DNA from: Trypanosoma brucei
Taxonomy: Eukaryota
Direction of reading: 5' to 3'
Assembly: GCA_000002445.1 (NCBI GenBank)
Contig: CP000067.1
Coordinates: 448,001 to 512,000 of the forward strand
DNA length: 64,000 nt
A model generated the notes under the pieces. It worked only from the letters and a program-made list of their open reading frames with translations, did no database searches and was not told the origin of the DNA. Position numbers and translations under genes: made by a program. Below, piece after piece: positions 23,886 to 33,700 of this stretch. Positions within the stretch are counted from its first letter, which is position 1, and each line of letters starts with the position of its first letter.

Positions 23886-24079
23886 ATCTCCGCCTCACTT
23901 CACTTCACTTCACTTCACTTCACTCTCTTTTCTTTTCTTTTCTTTTTTTTCTTTTTCTTTTTTGCATGTTAAATATTGCCGCAAAACATTTTACAATACG
24001 ACATGAACTCACAAATATATACACATACAAAAAAAAAGAAAAGAAAAGAAAAGAAAAGAGAGTGAAGTGAAGTGAAGTG
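23886..24079. repeat. Imperfect inverted repeat (~50-nt arms, ~65-nt spacer) built from (CACTT)n plus (TTTTC)n
   Basis: The left arm 23886-23963 reads cacttcacttcacttcacttcacttcactctcttttcttttcttttctttttttt. The right arm 24029-24079 reads aaaaaaaaagaaaagaaaagaaaagaaaagagagtgaagtgaagtgaagtg, its reverse complement with different repeat counts. The ORF track confirms it: the peptide SLHFTLFSFLFF is encoded on both strands. Confidence 0.85.
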
Positions 24080-26725: not shown

Positions 26726-27400
26726 CTAATAATCCTCCTCTTCCTCTTCATTCTCTTCCGCTTCTTCTTCCCTCGCACGTCTCCTCGCCTCGCGCCGCCT
26801 CTCACGCTCTAATCGCCGCTTCTCCATTCGTTTCGCCTCGTCGTATTCCTTCATAATAGTGTTGCGGCGAATAACAGCATTCTGCAATACTGCCTCCCAT
26901 TTCGCCGTGGAACTCCCTTCCGCAATCAGACGTGGCGCATTTAAATCATCCGAATCCTTTACAATCTTTCCCTGTACAAAAAACAACATGCAGGGGGTGC
27001 TGCGAACTTCTAAAAACAATAACAGCTCTACGAGCATCTCATATGCCTGTCTGTGCAACTCTTGCTTCTGCACCTTACTGGGTGGGCGCTTCGTAGCAAT
27101 ATACACCGGATCCTTTTCAATAAGTTGCTGAATATTTGTTCGCTCCTCAGGGACAAGAGCGACATTAAAATACCGCACGCGCCGGGTTTGGTGACGGTCC
27201 CGCAGCACAAAACGTTCCTTCACGAGTGGTAACAGTTTGGCGCTGTGTGGACATAAGAAAGTCGTAACTACCAGCGCACAGAGAGCCTCGGGTTCCCCCA
27301 CCACATGTGTCTCAAAATCCTCTTTGCTCAGCAGCGTGACGAACCGCTTGGTTAATTCGTCAACGGAGGAGGCCTCACTATCACGGTCAAGGTCAGACAT
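26726..27400 (-). CDS. Hypothetical conserved protein (224 aa) with charged coiled-coil C-terminus
   Basis: ATG-initiated (CAT 27398-27400). The N-terminal ~150 aa is globular and non-repetitive (possibly a thioredoxin-like fold: ..ALCALVVTTFLCPHSAKLLPLVKERF..). The C-terminal region is RRE-rich (ERERRREARRRAREEEAEENEEEEEDY). Confidence 0.5.
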   Translation of the reverse strand: MSDLDRDSEASSVDELTKRFVTLLSKEDFETHVVGEPEALCALVVTTFLCPHSAKLLPLVKERFVLRDRHQTRRVRYFNVALVPEERTNIQQLIEKDPVYIATKRPPSKVQKQELHRQAYEMLVELLLFLEVRSTPCMLFFVQGKIVKDSDDLNAPRLIAEGSSTAKWEAVLQNAVIRRNTIMKEYDEAKRMEKRRLERERRREARRRAREEEAEENEEEEEDY

Positions 27401-27668
27401 GGCGCGTAAATGATGAATCTATGCCTTTCACACGCCTTCTTCAAATATATATATATACGTGTGTGCGTGAGAGAGAGAGAGCATTTCATTATATATATAT
27501 ATATATATATAAGAAGGTATACGAAATACTTTACAGAGGAAATGATGATATGGTCAACCGTCAATCTGTCCAACTTTTGTTTTCCTCCTTTAAAACGAAT
27601 TGGATTTTGCAGCTTCAGTATAATAAGTTTACTGATATGAAACACTGACCCTTTCCATGAGGTTCCCT

Positions 27669-27725
27669 TCAGTCATTGTTCTCTCTTCCACGTCCCGTGA
27701 ATGTGGAAGAGAGAACAATGACTGA
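27669..27725. repeat. Perfect palindrome / hairpin: 23-bp stem, 11-nt loop
   Basis: tcagtcattgttctctcttccac (27669-27691), loop gtcccgtgaat, then gtggaagagagaacaatgactga (27703-27725), which is the exact reverse complement. It lies in non-repetitive DNA between the Bud23 stop (28192) and the next gene's ATG (27400). Confidence 0.9.
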
Positions 27726-28191
27726 AACACAACACTGGGAAGTTCTCACACATACTCCGCTATGAAAGGAAACAACAACAAAAAAGGCTAAACGGAAACT
27801 TTTGCCTGACTGCATCAGATAAAAACAGCCAGACCATCCATCCAGCATTCATCCTTTAAACAGAATACAATGTAGTCACCTTCCCTCACCACTATATGTA
27901 TATATCTTTTATATTTCTTTTACCTCTTTTGTTATACGCTGCTTACATCTTTTAATCGAATATTCACTTGGGTGTGAGGGCCTAAATTGCTAGCGAAAAA
28001 GGGAAATGTACTTCACAGTTTGAAGAAAAGCACTTGTAACCCACACAGACAATTTCTTTATTCAATCCCCCACCTTTCCTCAAGATATCATCAACATGTA
28101 GTGTGCTGGAAAGTGACGAGTGTGTTGAGTGCTTGCTTTCAGATGTTCAGACAGAGAACCAAAGAGAGACAGCGATAAGTGCGGAAACCAA

Positions 28192-29331
28192 CTAAAAACG
28201 GGGTCGCCGCCTTCGCATGGTGTATTTTGTGTCTTCTGATGTTTTAAGGCCAAACTTGCGCCGCTCCGCCTTCTTAAGAAGAACCCACTCCTTCGTTCCA
28301 GTTACGGGACGATTGTCCTTTCGGCGACGTGCACCCGCCTGCCGCCCTCCATGACTACGCGACCGCTTGTGTGCCACTCGACCCCCCACGCGGGCCCCAA
28401 ATCGTTGTCCCTCATCATTTTCCTCCTCACCTTCTTCTTCTCCATCCTCTTCCTCACATTCCTCCTCCTCTTCCACCTCTTCACCTCCTTCATTGCAGAC
28501 AGAGAGTGGACGTGGAGGCATAAAACCACCCGCTACTTGGCCGGCTTGCACGACAAGGTAATGTTTCTTCGCTTTTGTGCTATGAGGAAAGTCTACCACG
28601 ACACCACCAGAGAAACCACATAGCATGGCGGCTCTCGTGATCATATGCAGTTGTTCAACGTTAGCAGGGTAAAACTGAATTGCAGCCTTCGCCCCACGGC
28701 GGAGGGCATTGTAGAGGCATTGGAAAAGAGCACGCAACCGTCTTTGTGGAACTTGGCCGCGGCGGTCACTTTGACAAAGCCACTGCACGGCAGAAATTGA
28801 GACGGCACCATCAAATGCACCCGGGCGGAAGGGAAGTCCCTCACCCATATCTCCTCGCATGACCTCAACTATCGATGGTCCCGGTGGAAGAACAGCTTCA
28901 GCCTCATTTCCATCGCCGTCAGTGCTGTCATGGTCATCATTCTCATTCTCATTCTCATTTTCATCATGAATTGGACCCCAACGCACATCTCGCAAGTCCA
29001 CACCTTCTATTGGTCCCTCATCCTCCTTTTCATCATCTTCCCGCATTAATTCCTCTGAAGCCTTTGCCATTCCGAGCATATCCGTACTAATATCAATCCC
29101 AATCCATGTATGGCCACACTCTCGCAAAACTTCACCACTTAATCCACTACCGCACCCAACGTCGAGGAGCAGCGCCGGACACCCACTTGGAAGTGCGAGG
29201 AGCTCCAGCGCCCGCCGTGTCATGGCTCGTTGAACCATTTGTACGCGGCCGCTACGAGTGTAGCGCTGAGCCCCATCAGCATTGTAAAGAATATCGGGTG
29301 GTGCCTCAAATTCGGGACGTGTTGGCGGCAT
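28192..29331 (-). CDS. BUD23: 18S rRNA (guanine-N7)-methyltransferase Bud23/WBSCR22-like
   Basis: N-terminal PPDILYNADGAQRYTRSGRVQMVQRAMTRRALELLALPSG..LLLDVGCGSGLSGEVL..GHTWIGIDIS matches Bud23, a class I SAM methyltransferase (motif I: DVGCGSG). The basic C-terminal tail is typical of Bud23. Two acidic low-complexity insertions are present. ATG confirmed (CAT 29329-29331). Confidence 0.85.
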   Translation of the reverse strand: MPPTRPEFEAPPDILYNADGAQRYTRSGRVQMVQRAMTRRALELLALPSGCPALLLDVGCGSGLSGEVLRECGHTWIGIDISTDMLGMAKASEELMREDDEKEDEGPIEGVDLRDVRWGPIHDENENENENDDHDSTDGDGNEAEAVLPPGPSIVEVMRGDMGEGLPFRPGAFDGAVSISAVQWLCQSDRRGQVPQRRLRALFQCLYNALRRGAKAAIQFYPANVEQLHMITRAAMLCGFSGGVVVDFPHSTKAKKHYLVVQAGQVAGGFMPPRPLSVCNEGGEEVEEEEECEEEDGEEEGEEENDEGQRFGARVGGRVAHKRSRSHGGRQAGARRRKDNRPVTGTKEWVLLKKAERRKFGLKTSEDTKYTMRRRRPRF

Positions 29332-29412: not shown

Positions 29413-30740
29413 TCTTTCCCGTCCTTATTTAACCACTATCTATCTCCCACTTGATGAAGCTACTCCTTGAAGTTGTGTGTGTGTGTTTTAAAAACACAAA
29501 AAAAAACAACAGCAGTTCCCCTGTGAGCAGAAACCAAAACTGTAAAATATGGCGGGACTAAAGGACCTTCCCACCCACCCCCCCTTTTCCTCTGAGCTGA
29601 ATTATTACCCAGCACATCATTAAAATGAAATGAAAAATAAAAAAAAATAAAACAAGAGGCACCGAAAAAAGAGTGGAAAAAAAAGAAGAAAAGAAAAGAG
29701 AATGATAAACAACATCAAGTGATGAAAGTACACATGAGTATTCCTTTTTGTTTTACTGTTTTACTTTTATTTCATGCTCCGTCGTCTCCCTTTTTGTTTG
29801 TAAGCGAAAAAGAAAAAAAGAACACATTTCGAGGTCGCGCCTCACGGGATCGTCGAAACACGAGAGGAAAGAAGGAAAACAAAAACCGTGTAAATCAAAA
29901 GGGAAAAGCAAAAAAAAAAAGAAATGAGTAAACAAACCCCAAACACACACGTAAATAAAGAAACTGTAGAGAGGGAAAGAAAAAAAAAAGGATCTGGGGA
30001 ACGAATCGAAATAAAGGTACAACAACTAATAAAAAAGATGAAATGGGAAAAGAAGTGGAACAACGAAGAACCGAATAAGAAAAGAGAAACTGGAACAAAA
30101 AAGAGAGTGTTGCGTACTGGAATCGGTAAACGGCGGTAAAACATAAAACAAAACGCGTAAAAGTAATAACGAAAGCACAGCAGAAGCAACAACATCAAAA
30201 CAACAAGAAGCAAAACTAATATCAGTTCCTCCTTTTCTTTTTAAATCTTTTCCTCGCACACTCCCCCCCCTTCCCTCACTGCTACTATTTTTGTTATTGT
30301 TGTAATAATCTTCTCACCCCAACTTTCCTTTTTTTTTCTCTCTCTCTCTCTTCTTCTTTTCCTTTGAAGTTTCTTTTTTTTTTTTATTTTGTCTATTTTC
30401 TCTCTTTTGTTTTGACTTTCCCTTTTTTTCTTTTTTCATACGTATGTGCCTTTGCGTCATGAGAGAAATGTCCTTCATGACGGCTGCTTTTCCACCTCCT
30501 TATATTTCATTTTCTTTTTTTTTACTTTTAAAAGTCCAGCACCATCACCAACACAATAATTAGCAACACAACTAATAATAATAATAATTATTATTATTAT
30601 TAATATAATCAACAACAACAATATCATCAACATCATCATCATCATCATCACTGCTGCTACCGGCGTGTAACACATCCCTTTCTTTTCTTTTCTCCTTTTT
30701 GTTTTTTCTTTTTCTTTTTTCTATTCATATATCCATATAT

Positions 30741-30743
<3 letters not shown>

Positions 30744-30785
<42 letters not shown>
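30744..30785. repeat. (TA)n microsatellite, ~21 units
   Basis: Direct reading of atatat... across 30744-30785. It lies within the 8.4 kb gene-free tract. Confidence 0.9.
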
Positions 30786-30789
<4 letters not shown>

Positions 30790-33700
30790 TTATTATTATT
30801 TTGAAAATTTCTTTTTTCTTCTTTCCCCCTCTTTTTTTTATTCACAATCTTCCTTTTCTTCCTATCACTATCCCTAAACTTGACACATTTCCTTTCAAGT
30901 ATAAAACCCTATTTTTCCTTTTTTGTTTTTAAGAAAAAAAAAATTTCCCCTCCTTTTCCCTTTACACACCCTTTGCATATCCCACAAAAAGAAAATAAAA
31001 GATAAAAGATAAATAATAATTAAAACAAAACAACACAACAGCAGCAAAGAAGGAAGGAATAAAAAAAAAAAAAGAGAAAAAAGAGAGTTGTTTTCACTTC
31101 TTTTTTTCTTTCTTTTTTTCTTTCTTTTTTTCTTTCTTTTTTTTTTAATTATTTTTTCTTTTTTTTCCTTTGCTTTGCTTTGTCACCATCACAAAAAAAA
31201 AAAGCAAAACAACAGTTACCATCGCTATCATCATAACCGCGGCCAACTTGCTGCCACGTGGTGGAGAATATTAACAACAGGCTCTAAATGATAATAATGA
31301 AGCGTGTGTAACCGTAAGGGTAAAGGAAGCAGGTAAAAATTAAAAAAAAAACAAACAAACAAACAAACACAACTTCCGTTGATGTTCTTTCATTTGTTCA
31401 TCATTTTGCTAATGTTTCACTTCTAATTCATTTCTCCGGCTGCCATTTTCAGTAGTCTTTTTATTTTAAGTCCTCATAAGCTTCGCCCTTTTCTTTTTTC
31501 TTTTCTTTTTTTTCTTGCCTTTTTTGTTGGTTTGGTTCTAATATCCCTCTGCAACAACATACAGTTATTATTGTTATTATTATTGTTGTTGTTGTTGTTG
31601 TTTTCCCCCATCTCTCTCTCTCCTGAAATAAGTGAGTTTCTCACCAACGCAAGACAAAAAAAAAAAAGAAAAAAAAAGTGAAAAATGAAAATGAAGGAAA
31701 CAACAACTTTTCCTCCATGATGTAAAAGGAAAAGAGCCGTAAACAAAGGTTTAGGAAATTGTAAAAATAAATACAAACAAAAAAAATTTACCGATGGTTT
31801 ACACCAATTTCCTCATAAAAACTTAAAAAACAAAACAATAAAAGAAAAGAAAAGAAAAGAAAAAAAGAAAACACGTCTGGAGGAATCTTCATGCATCTCC
31901 CTTCAGCCAATGTTACACAACCTCTTTCTCTTCTTCATTTTATCACTTCTGTAAAAAAAAAAAAAACAACAATCGATTACGTCTTTTTTTCTTTTTTTCT
32001 TTCTTTCTTTTTTTCTTTTTTTGATTCTCTTTTTATTATTTTTGTTGCTGTTAAATCTTTTTTTTTCCTCTTTCTCTCTCTCTCTCTTTTTTTTTATTGT
32101 ATTTTGGCTCTTTAAGTCATTTTATTTCTCTTGTCATGTACTTCTATGGTTTAAAGCAGAAACAAAGAAACAAATCTCAAAACACACTTGTTTCATTTTC
32201 TTTATGGATATGTAAATTTCACTTGAAAACAACAAAACAAAACAAAACAAAAAATAATAATTATTATTATTATTACAGAAACAAAATAAAAACAATAAAA
32301 ATAAGGAAAACTAACATCATGACAAATCGCTCACACAACTCCCTCATCCCCTCCCGAATATCTTTTTCCCTTCCCTTCCCTTCGCTTTTCTTTTCTCTTT
32401 TTTTTTCTTTTTTCCTTTCCTTTTTTTTCCTCTCAACGGAAATGTACGTGCAATCTGTGCAACATTTAAATAAATTTAAGTATAAATAAATATATAAATA
32501 TAAATATATATTTCATATTTCATACAGATCACCACCGCCCTAAAACAATAATAACAACGAATAATAAAAATTAAAAAATGATGATCCTTCGGCATACCCA
32601 AACACAAAACGAAAGTTCCCCATCGTTTTCTTTTCATTTGTTTTCATTTCTTTCCTGTGCTTTATTTGTTATTTATTTATTTTAGTCCCTAGTATATATA
32701 TATATATATATATATAATAAAAGCAAACACAGTTAAGTGGAAATAACGATATAATAAAACAAACAAATGAGTGAAACAAAAAAGGGGAAAAGCAATGAAA
32801 GGCGCGAATCGCGGACCGAATATAAAATAACGGTAAAACAAATGACCACAAATTGTCTCGTTTTATTTTCTTTCCCTTTCAAAAAAAAAATAAAAATAAA
32901 TAATAAAATCTGTGCTTTTTCAAAGGAAAAGAAAAAAACAGAAAGGGTTGATGAAGAAGAGTAAACGGAGAGGAAAAAAACCCAACGAAAAGATGTAAAA
33001 ATAATAATATATAATATATATAATATATATATATATATATTTATATTTATTTATTTATGGGGAGAAAATTTTTTTAAAGAAAAAGAAAAAGAAAAAAAAA
33101 GAAGGCAAGAATGAGGGGGGAAAAAATATATACCAAAAGGCGACTGATTTTTTTTTCCCCGCTCCTCCTCCTTTTTTTAAATTTTATTTTAATTTTCACA
33201 ACACAACACAAAAACCCAACCGATGCTACCGGAAGTCAAAACCAACTCATGAGGGACCAAACAAGCACAAATAAAAAAGGGACATATTCATATATTTTTA
33301 AAACAAAAAAACAAAAATTCCTTCTTTGATTTTATAAGGAAGAATTTGTATTTTGTGTTGCTGTTGTGTATATGTTTTGACGATGATGCGTAAATGTATA
33401 AAATAATACATACATATATATATTTATATATTTATTTATTTATTTGTATTAATTGGTTTTGTTGTTGTTTTGCACTGCACCGTACAGTTGAGAGGAAGTG
33501 GAGGAGGAAAAACAAAAAGGGAAATGGGGAAGACAAACAAACAAACAAACATAACTTTTCTCCAAAAAATTCGTTTTTGGAATTTAAAAAAAATGTGTTT
33601 GCAGGAGTAAGATTAAAAATGGGAGAAATGTGTAACGAAGGTGGGGGGAAAAATACTTCTCTTCTCTTCTTTCCTTTTCCTTTTCCTTTTCCTTTTTTTA

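Follow-up and report, generated by a model that had tools for sequence, protein, structure and literature searches.

Between the gene for a Bud23-type 18S rRNA methyltransferase and its downstream neighbor on chromosome 4 of Trypanosoma brucei lies a perfect hairpin, and the question that this locus raises is whether the two arms of the stem are kept alike by selection on an RNA structure or by events in the DNA itself. The hairpin was analysed within a window of 64,000 nucleotides that corresponds to positions 448,001-512,000 of T. b. brucei TREU927 chromosome 4, and positions are those of the window unless the chromosome is named. ORF coordinates from the supplement of Kolev et al. 2010 (PMC2936537), including those of the two genes listed here, gave an offset between window and chromosome of exactly 448,000.

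chr4 448,465-449,907: Tb927.4.1790 (RPL3)
chr4 495,944-497,068: Tb927.4.1960

The hairpin itself is made up of the following parts.

27668..27691, 24 nt: arm 1 of the perfect inverted repeat, plus-strand sequence TTCAGTCATTGTTCTCTCTTCCAC, containing position 27681 of a polymorphic mirror pair
27692..27702, 11 nt: loop, ATTCACGGGAC in gene orientation
27703..27726, 24 nt: arm 2 of the inverted repeat, containing position 27713 of the polymorphic mirror pair

The two arms are 100% complementary. An earlier note on this DNA had described a 23-bp stem with an 11-nt loop; the loop was found as described, whereas the stem was found to be 24 nt long and not 23. As the genes on either side are encoded by the minus strand, the hairpin is transcribed as the reverse complement of the written sequence, with the loop AUUCACGGGAC. 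The arm sequence had no further occurrence within the 64-kb window when up to 3 mismatches were allowed, and none of 100 shuffles matched. Chance alone is expected to produce about 2e-8 perfect inverted repeats with arms of at least 24 nt and a loop of up to 100 nt per 64 kb, which bears out the earlier claim that such a stem is unlikely to have arisen by chance. When the perfect inverted repeats of the window are limited to arms of 12 nt or more and a loop of 3-60 nt, the hairpin is the longest, and it is the sole one that does not consist of microsatellite sequence. The earlier note had likewise set the element apart from the microsatellites around it.

In terms of folding, a 121-nt RNA segment containing the hairpin reached -52.4 kcal/mol (z = -7.2) for the plus strand and -53.5 kcal/mol (z = -6.3) for the minus strand, and 0 of 200 shuffled controls folded equally well. 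The folding of both strands compared with the shuffles agrees with the expectation of a very stable RNA hairpin. The inverted repeat is able to form an intrastrand hairpin, with energies of approximately -26.7 kcal/mol as DNA and -41.6 kcal/mol as RNA. The hairpin is not an artefact of the reference sequence, because independent short-read assemblies carry it too. An imperfect outer helix, formed by 27738-27750 with 27651-27667 (TGAGAACTTCCC / GGGAACCTCA in gene orientation), lengthens the hairpin past an 11-nt asymmetric bulge, and may be the leftover of an older, larger quasi-palindrome.

The genes around the hairpin are all on the minus strand, and the element is located within a polycistronic unit. 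Its position relative to the neighboring transcripts is given by the features listed below.

28192..29331, minus strand: Tb927.4.1900, Bud23-type 18S rRNA methyltransferase, 379 aa, upstream of the hairpin
27561..27616, minus strand: Bud23 poly(A) zone, predicted and not mapped, 123-178 nt upstream of the Tb927.4.1890 spliced-leader site
27438 (chr4 475,438), minus strand: major spliced-leader (SL) addition site of Tb927.4.1890, experimentally mapped (PMC2936537 supplement)
26726..27400, minus strand: Tb927.4.1890, 224 aa, annotated with a thioredoxin-like fold, downstream of the hairpin

In the sense of transcription, 466 nt separate the Bud23 stop codon from the hairpin downstream of it, and the Bud23 product of the window is identical to the protein of TREU927 and T. 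equiperdum OVI. Within the Bud23 coding sequence, in-frame length polymorphisms were observed in the acidic tract at 28442 and 28948-28960, where an (AATGAG)n repeat encodes (Asn-Glu)n and an AGA codon is inserted or deleted; owing to these repeat polymorphisms, the protein measures 376-382 aa among T. brucei strains and subspecies. A literature search that linked Bud23 with a Tb927.4 gene ID returned nothing. Three small spurious ORFs (59, 97, and 33 aa) overlap or abut the hairpin, and look-ups of their exact products gave no record.

For Tb927.4.1890, the SL addition site at 27438 comes directly after the AG at 27440-27439, the 5'UTR is 38 nt long, and the SL-site dispersion is 0.94 (Kolev 2010, PMC2936537). 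The hairpin is located 230-288 nt upstream of this site, and is therefore outside the mature mRNA of that gene. Immediately upstream of the acceptor, (TA)n, (CT)n, and (CA)n microsatellites occupy 27440-27515 and include the presumed polypyrimidine tract; their lengths differ among TREU927, T. b. gambiense DAL972, and T. b. equiperdum IVM-t1, and short-read assemblies break or carry Ns there.

For Bud23, neither an SL site nor a poly(A) site of Tb927.4.1900 is listed in the Kolev 2010 supplement (PMC2936537), and both Tb927.4.1900 and Tb927.4.1890 are missing from Nilsson 2010. The distance from an SL site to the poly(A) site upstream of it has a median of 142 nt and an interquartile range of 123-178 nt. 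The Bud23 SL acceptor is predicted at about 29596, where a strong polypyrimidine tract is followed by the first AG at 29598-29597, and this would give a 5'UTR of 265 nt. Together, the 142-nt median spacing, the 2018 nt annotated for the Tb927.4.1900 mRNA, and a 5' end predicted at 29596 would place the Bud23 3' end at approximately 27579. Judged by the mRNA length, the predicted acceptor, and the mapped SL site, the hairpin is probably within the distal Bud23 3'UTR, about 65-150 nt ahead of the predicted poly(A) site. The earlier note had assigned the hairpin to the Bud23 3' flank, either in the 3'UTR or in the precursor upstream of the next gene. The location in the flank is correct and the location in the mature Bud23 3'UTR is probable, while the SL site at 27438 excludes the mature Tb927.4.1890 mRNA. 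On the far side of the predicted Bud23 acceptor, a T-rich, low-complexity stretch of about 2.8 kb (29600-32400) extends up to the dispersed poly(A) sites of Tb927.4.1910, and it is without an assigned transcript in the published tables examined. The 3'UTR of Tb927.4.1910 measures approximately 5.4 kb, and the major poly(A) site of this gene is at window position ~32402 (Kolev 2010, PMC2936537).

The window was compared with the corresponding loci of T. b. gambiense DAL972, T. equiperdum OVI, T. b. equiperdum IVM-t1, and nine Logan assemblies (ERR7929156-64). The hairpin was spanned in 7 of the 9 Logan assemblies, for a total of 11 assemblies including TREU927. The flanks are 98-99.5% identical to the window, and four allelic states were observed at one and the same 59-nt site. 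The TREU927 state, in gene orientation, consists of the GTTCTCTC arm, the loop ATTCACGGGAC, and the GAGAGAAC arm, with a C:G pair at the variable stem position. The state of the ERR79291xx assemblies (7/7) carries two arm changes in gene orientation, 27713 C>A and 27681 G>T, which results in an A:T pair and a stem that is still paired at 24 of 24 positions; a G>A loop SNP at 27694 was also found in all seven. The positions 27713 and 27681 are exactly mirrored, complementary positions of the two arms, and given one arm substitution the chance that another falls at the mirror position is approximately 0.7%. The state of T. equiperdum OVI keeps the TREU927 arms, with a loop, GTCCCGTGAAT, that is the exact reverse complement; over all 59 nt, OVI is 100% identical to the window read on the opposite strand, whereas its flanks are collinear and near-identical. 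This loop inversion was seen in one short-read assembly only, with an N gap about 200 nt away. In the fourth state, that of DAL972 and IVM-t1, an 85-bp block that bears the hairpin is precisely absent.

The perfect 24-bp stem is retained in each of the three allele types that have the hairpin. The hairpin is also a local mutational hot spot: 3 differences were counted in its 59 nt compared with 7-8 in approximately 1660 nt of flank, in a small sample of alleles. The resulting P values were 0.002-0.003 (Poisson) and 0.004-0.005 (Fisher), or 0.03 if the changes are counted as two events. The ERR assemblies may be closely related samples, and the number of independent alleles is then small, while their contigs differ from one another at flanking SNPs and in repeat length and represent at least 3 haplotypes. 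In T. vivax the gene order is the same, yet the syntenic spacer is without any inverted repeat longer than 10 nt and is unrelated in sequence to that of T. brucei, so the hairpin is absent there. The earlier note had proposed that conservation of the element be examined in the Bud23 3' flanks of other trypanosomatids. The element is absent from the close relatives DAL972 and IVM-t1 as well as from syntenic T. vivax, and this is largely the outcome that the note itself had named as counting against a role.

The block that distinguishes the fourth state is bounded as follows.

27646..27730, 85 bp (equally 27638-27722; the ends are ambiguous by 8 bp): presence/absence block, consisting of the hairpin, a 22-nt tail, and one copy of the direct repeat
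27638..27645, minus strand: direct repeat copy GTGTTTCA, on the downstream side of the block
27723..27730, minus strand: direct repeat copy GTGTTTCA, on the upstream side, overlapping the first 4 nt of the arm

Two copies of the 8-bp GTGTTTCA are present 85 bp apart in the filled alleles, and one copy is present in DAL972 and IVM-t1; the endpoints of the missing segment in both strains lie in these bracketing repeats. The right half of the outer helix is lost together with the block. Five flanking SNPs separate TREU927 and OVI from all the other haplotypes. The ERR haplotypes share the flanking-SNP state of DAL972 and IVM-t1, yet they carry the block. Because the block occurs in both flanking haplogroups and the block-less alleles occur within the second of them, loss is favoured over gain. 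Comparison of the haplotypes thus suggests that presence of the block is ancestral and its loss derived, a polarity that is favoured but not proven, and insertion would be equally parsimonious if the root of the haplotype tree were placed on the branch of the block-less alleles. Given the divergence between the two versions of the hairpin, the block must date back at least to the haplotype split.

Taken together, the perfection and the variation of the hairpin stem are best explained by DNA-level dynamics and not by selection on RNA structure. In our reading of the alleles, the element is probably a selectively dispensable DNA quasi-palindrome, in which template switching would account for the perfection of the arms, the apparent covariation, and the flip of the loop, and slippage between direct repeats would account for the loss of the block. 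The mechanism that we infer from these footprints would proceed as follows. During replication, the single-stranded arms would fold back, and the nascent strand could switch template to the complementary arm and then back again. A switch of this kind would copy a new mutation into the mirror position of the other arm, so that the stem stays perfect and seemingly compensatory changes appear in one step, and the same switch would be able to invert the loop. The whole 85-bp block would be removed by slippage, with mispairing between the two 8-bp GTGTTTCA copies on either side of the hairpin. Classically, slipped mispairing leads to the loss of a palindrome along with one of the short direct repeats that bracket it.

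The main alternative for the perfect stem is that the hairpin is a functional RNA stem-loop of the Bud23 3'UTR that acts in stability, localisation, translation, or 3'-end processing, with its pairing kept by purifying and compensatory selection. The great stability of the RNA hairpin on the transcribed strand, its probable place inside the mature 3'UTR close to the predicted poly(A) site, and the perfect 24-bp stem of all three hairpin-bearing allele types, including one covarying pair, are consistent with such an element. A mirror change that preserves pairing is also expected if the stem is under selection, and thus sequence alone cannot fully separate the two readings. However, the change from C:G to A:T is a double transversion that has no G:U wobble intermediate, and a stem with a single mismatch would still reach about -35 kcal/mol compared with about -42 kcal/mol for the perfect stem, a cost of about 6 kcal/mol. 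Selection against the intermediate would therefore be weak and selection for exact compensation is implausible, and the mirror covariation is better explained by copying of one arm from the other in one step. Further, the loop is variable in sequence and, judging by the OVI assembly, may also be inverted, no Rfam family matched the hairpin at the gathering score, and the abundance of the Tb927.4.1900 mRNA (approximately 2-3 copies per cell) and its half-life (8 min in bloodstream forms and 34 min in procyclic forms) are unremarkable in the strain measured, which may or may not carry the hairpin. Two viable lineages, DAL972 and IVM-t1, exist without the block and the T. vivax spacer has no such inverted repeat, from which we infer that the hairpin is dispensable; we regard a selected stem-loop as improbable. 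A more specific version, in which Dicer would process the hairpin, in the manner of a miRNA or shRNA precursor, into one siRNA duplex of 22-26 nt that either destabilises the Bud23 mRNA in cis or acts on a target in trans, is very improbable. It draws on the competence of T. brucei for RNAi, on a 24-bp stem with an imperfect outer helix that is near the 22-25-nt size of T. brucei siRNAs, and on sub-threshold matches to many miRNA precursor models. These permissive Rfam matches were rejected as generic precursor shapes that arise from the form of the hairpin alone, the best of them scoring 38.7 bits against a gathering score of 96. Sequencing of AGO1-bound and total small RNAs of T. brucei found no miRNAs; the inverted repeats that are known to produce siRNAs (IR1-IR7) are 422 bp to 10 kb long with none on chromosome 4 (PMC3447711), and the supplementary list of siRNA loci from that AGO1 survey contains nothing near chr4 475 kb. 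A second small-RNA survey of two life stages found no typical miRNAs either. No complementary target was found within the 64-kb window with up to 3 mismatches, and the element is not conserved. The roles suggested by the earlier note, namely in mRNA stability or processing, as a precursor of small RNAs, or as a site for protein binding, are thus unsupported, given the absence of the element in close relatives, the lack of an Rfam family, and an arm-copying process that explains the covariation; the small-RNA precursor fares no better in view of the two published surveys. It is very improbable, too, that the hairpin is a recently arisen functional short-hairpin RNA of the Bud23 3'UTR, specific to its lineage and acting as a Dicer substrate or a structured cis-element, with a selected stem and with presence or absence amounting to an expression polymorphism between subspecies; if true, it would be the first endogenous miRNA-like locus in a trypanosome. 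A protein-binding DNA palindrome or a replication origin was also considered and rejected, as dimer sites are typically far shorter than the 24-bp arms and the element is deletable and located inside a polycistronic unit.

Two further accounts concern the variation and not the stem. The block could be a small mobile or foldback (MITE-like) element whose insertion in part of the T. brucei lineages duplicated an 8-bp target site, in which case the block-less alleles would be empty sites. Its presence/absence polymorphism, its internal inverted repeat, and the 8-bp direct repeat at the junction would fit, although the direct repeat is predicted equally by slippage deletion and by target-site duplication. 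The inverted repeat is not terminal: one arm abuts the direct repeat, and the other is separated from the end of the block by the 22-nt non-palindromic tail. A second copy was not found in the 64-kb window and approximately 35 kb of related loci, even by short-word BLAST, and the block is present in both flanking haplogroups in two diverged versions, which argues against a recent insertion. The arm sequence had 0 matches in prokaryotic and viral collections, which excludes an origin from a contaminant or vector and is silent on copy number in T. brucei. A mobile element is therefore highly improbable; at the same time, no source copy of the palindrome was found in the approximately 100 kb examined, and the quasi-palindrome reading does not account for its origin. 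The variation could also be technical in part, with the OVI loop inversion being an assembly or library artefact and the ERR alleles coming from one strain that was sequenced repeatedly. Chimeric reads are prone to arise at palindromes, and OVI is represented by a short-read scaffold whose run of Ns is close to the hairpin, so that its loop inversion could be such an artefact. The ERR run numbers are consecutive; a literature search for the ERR run accessions found nothing. The arms, however, are only 24 nt long, so k-mers of at least 26 nt resolve the orientation of the loop, which is consistent in 7 of 7 Logan assemblies. The ERR contigs hold several haplotypes, as noted above, and the mirror substitution and the 85-bp deletion were each found in more than one independent assembly. 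A technical account, which touches only one of the three hallmarks of the locus, is possible but rather unlikely.

The reading of the hairpin as a quasi-palindrome shaped by replication errors can be compared with several known systems. Template switching at quasi-palindromes in bacteria, yeast, human, and RNA genes has been documented as a source of perfect stems, compensatory changes, and inverted loops (PMC8794818, PMC5453318, PMC3820800). The Bud23 hairpin is similar to these systems in that a hairpin-forming inverted repeat shows clustered changes that would come from copying of the complementary arm, in that one-step "compensatory" changes keep or restore a perfect stem, and in that the loop may be invertible while the arms are kept. 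In contrast to them, it is a standing polymorphism at a single nuclear trypanosome locus in a non-coding 3'UTR or spacer, where the mechanism is read from its traces. Kelchner and Wendel in 1996 reportedly described hairpin-associated minute inversions in plastid spacers. Such minute inversions, for example in trnH-psbA, resemble the OVI allele, as a short loop between perfect inverted repeats flips within species or among close relatives (PMC2903610). The plastid flips are homoplasious and apparently neutral. Unlike the Bud23 hairpin, the plastid inversions are organellar and their hairpins are often located at mRNA 3' ends with a stabilising role, whereas the present case is nuclear and its inversion comes from a single assembly. 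Deletion of palindromes in E. coli through slipped mispairing between flanking short direct repeats is said to have been described by Glickman and Ripley and by Sinden and colleagues. As in those slippage deletions, a short direct repeat (8 bp) would lose one of its copies along with the palindrome, and the hairpin would bring the copies close together. Unlike the experimental E. coli plasmid systems, the deletion here is a natural allele found in two T. brucei subspecies, in which the losses are not necessarily independent.

Within T. brucei itself, the siRNA-producing repeats IR1-IR7 are also near-perfect inverted repeats, and their authors likewise remark on the unexplained upkeep of arm identity (PMC3447711). 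The Bud23 hairpin differs from these long, documented sources of siRNA in its 24-bp arms and in that no small RNAs have been reported from it. The procyclin 16-mer exemplifies the regulatory stem-loops of trypanosome 3'UTRs, which are short, shared by different gene copies and strains, and backed by functional tests. The Bud23 hairpin is similar to the procyclin 16-mer in being a stem-loop, probably in the 3'UTR, of a polycistronically transcribed gene, and is unlike it in being long, perfect, strain-variable, and deletable.

If the reading as a quasi-palindrome is right, the locus would be a compact, natural case from a trypanosome nucleus in which hairpin-driven replication error has had three results in a single species complex: the arms are homogenised in a way that mimics compensatory evolution, the loop is inverted, and the block is deleted by slippage. 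It would also serve as a warning that a perfect stem, or even a covarying pair, is no evidence of RNA function where the arms can copy each other. The example is new, the kind of hot spot is already known, and no new biological question on Bud23 or on gene regulation is raised by it. In practical terms, the 85-bp indel together with the pair of arm SNPs could be a simple PCR marker for T. brucei lineages of the TREU927/OVI, ERR, and DAL972/IVM-t1 types.

The comparison of the assemblies also bears on the two strains named equiperdum. Across the locus, OVI differs from TREU927 by 4 mismatches in 2 kb, all of which come from the loop flip, whereas IVM-t1, unlike OVI, groups with DAL972 and the ERR haplotypes. 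The proximity of OVI to TREU927 and of IVM-t1 to DAL972 and ERR fits separate origins of the two strains. Elsewhere in the window, a second and longer inverted repeat (23906-23956 / 24029-24079) with 51-nt arms that are 96% complementary is located in the 3' flank of Tb927.4.1880. This repeat (23906-24079) consists of low-complexity (CACTT)n(CTTTT)n and its complement, and is variable in length relative to DAL972 (84.8% identity, 7 gaps).
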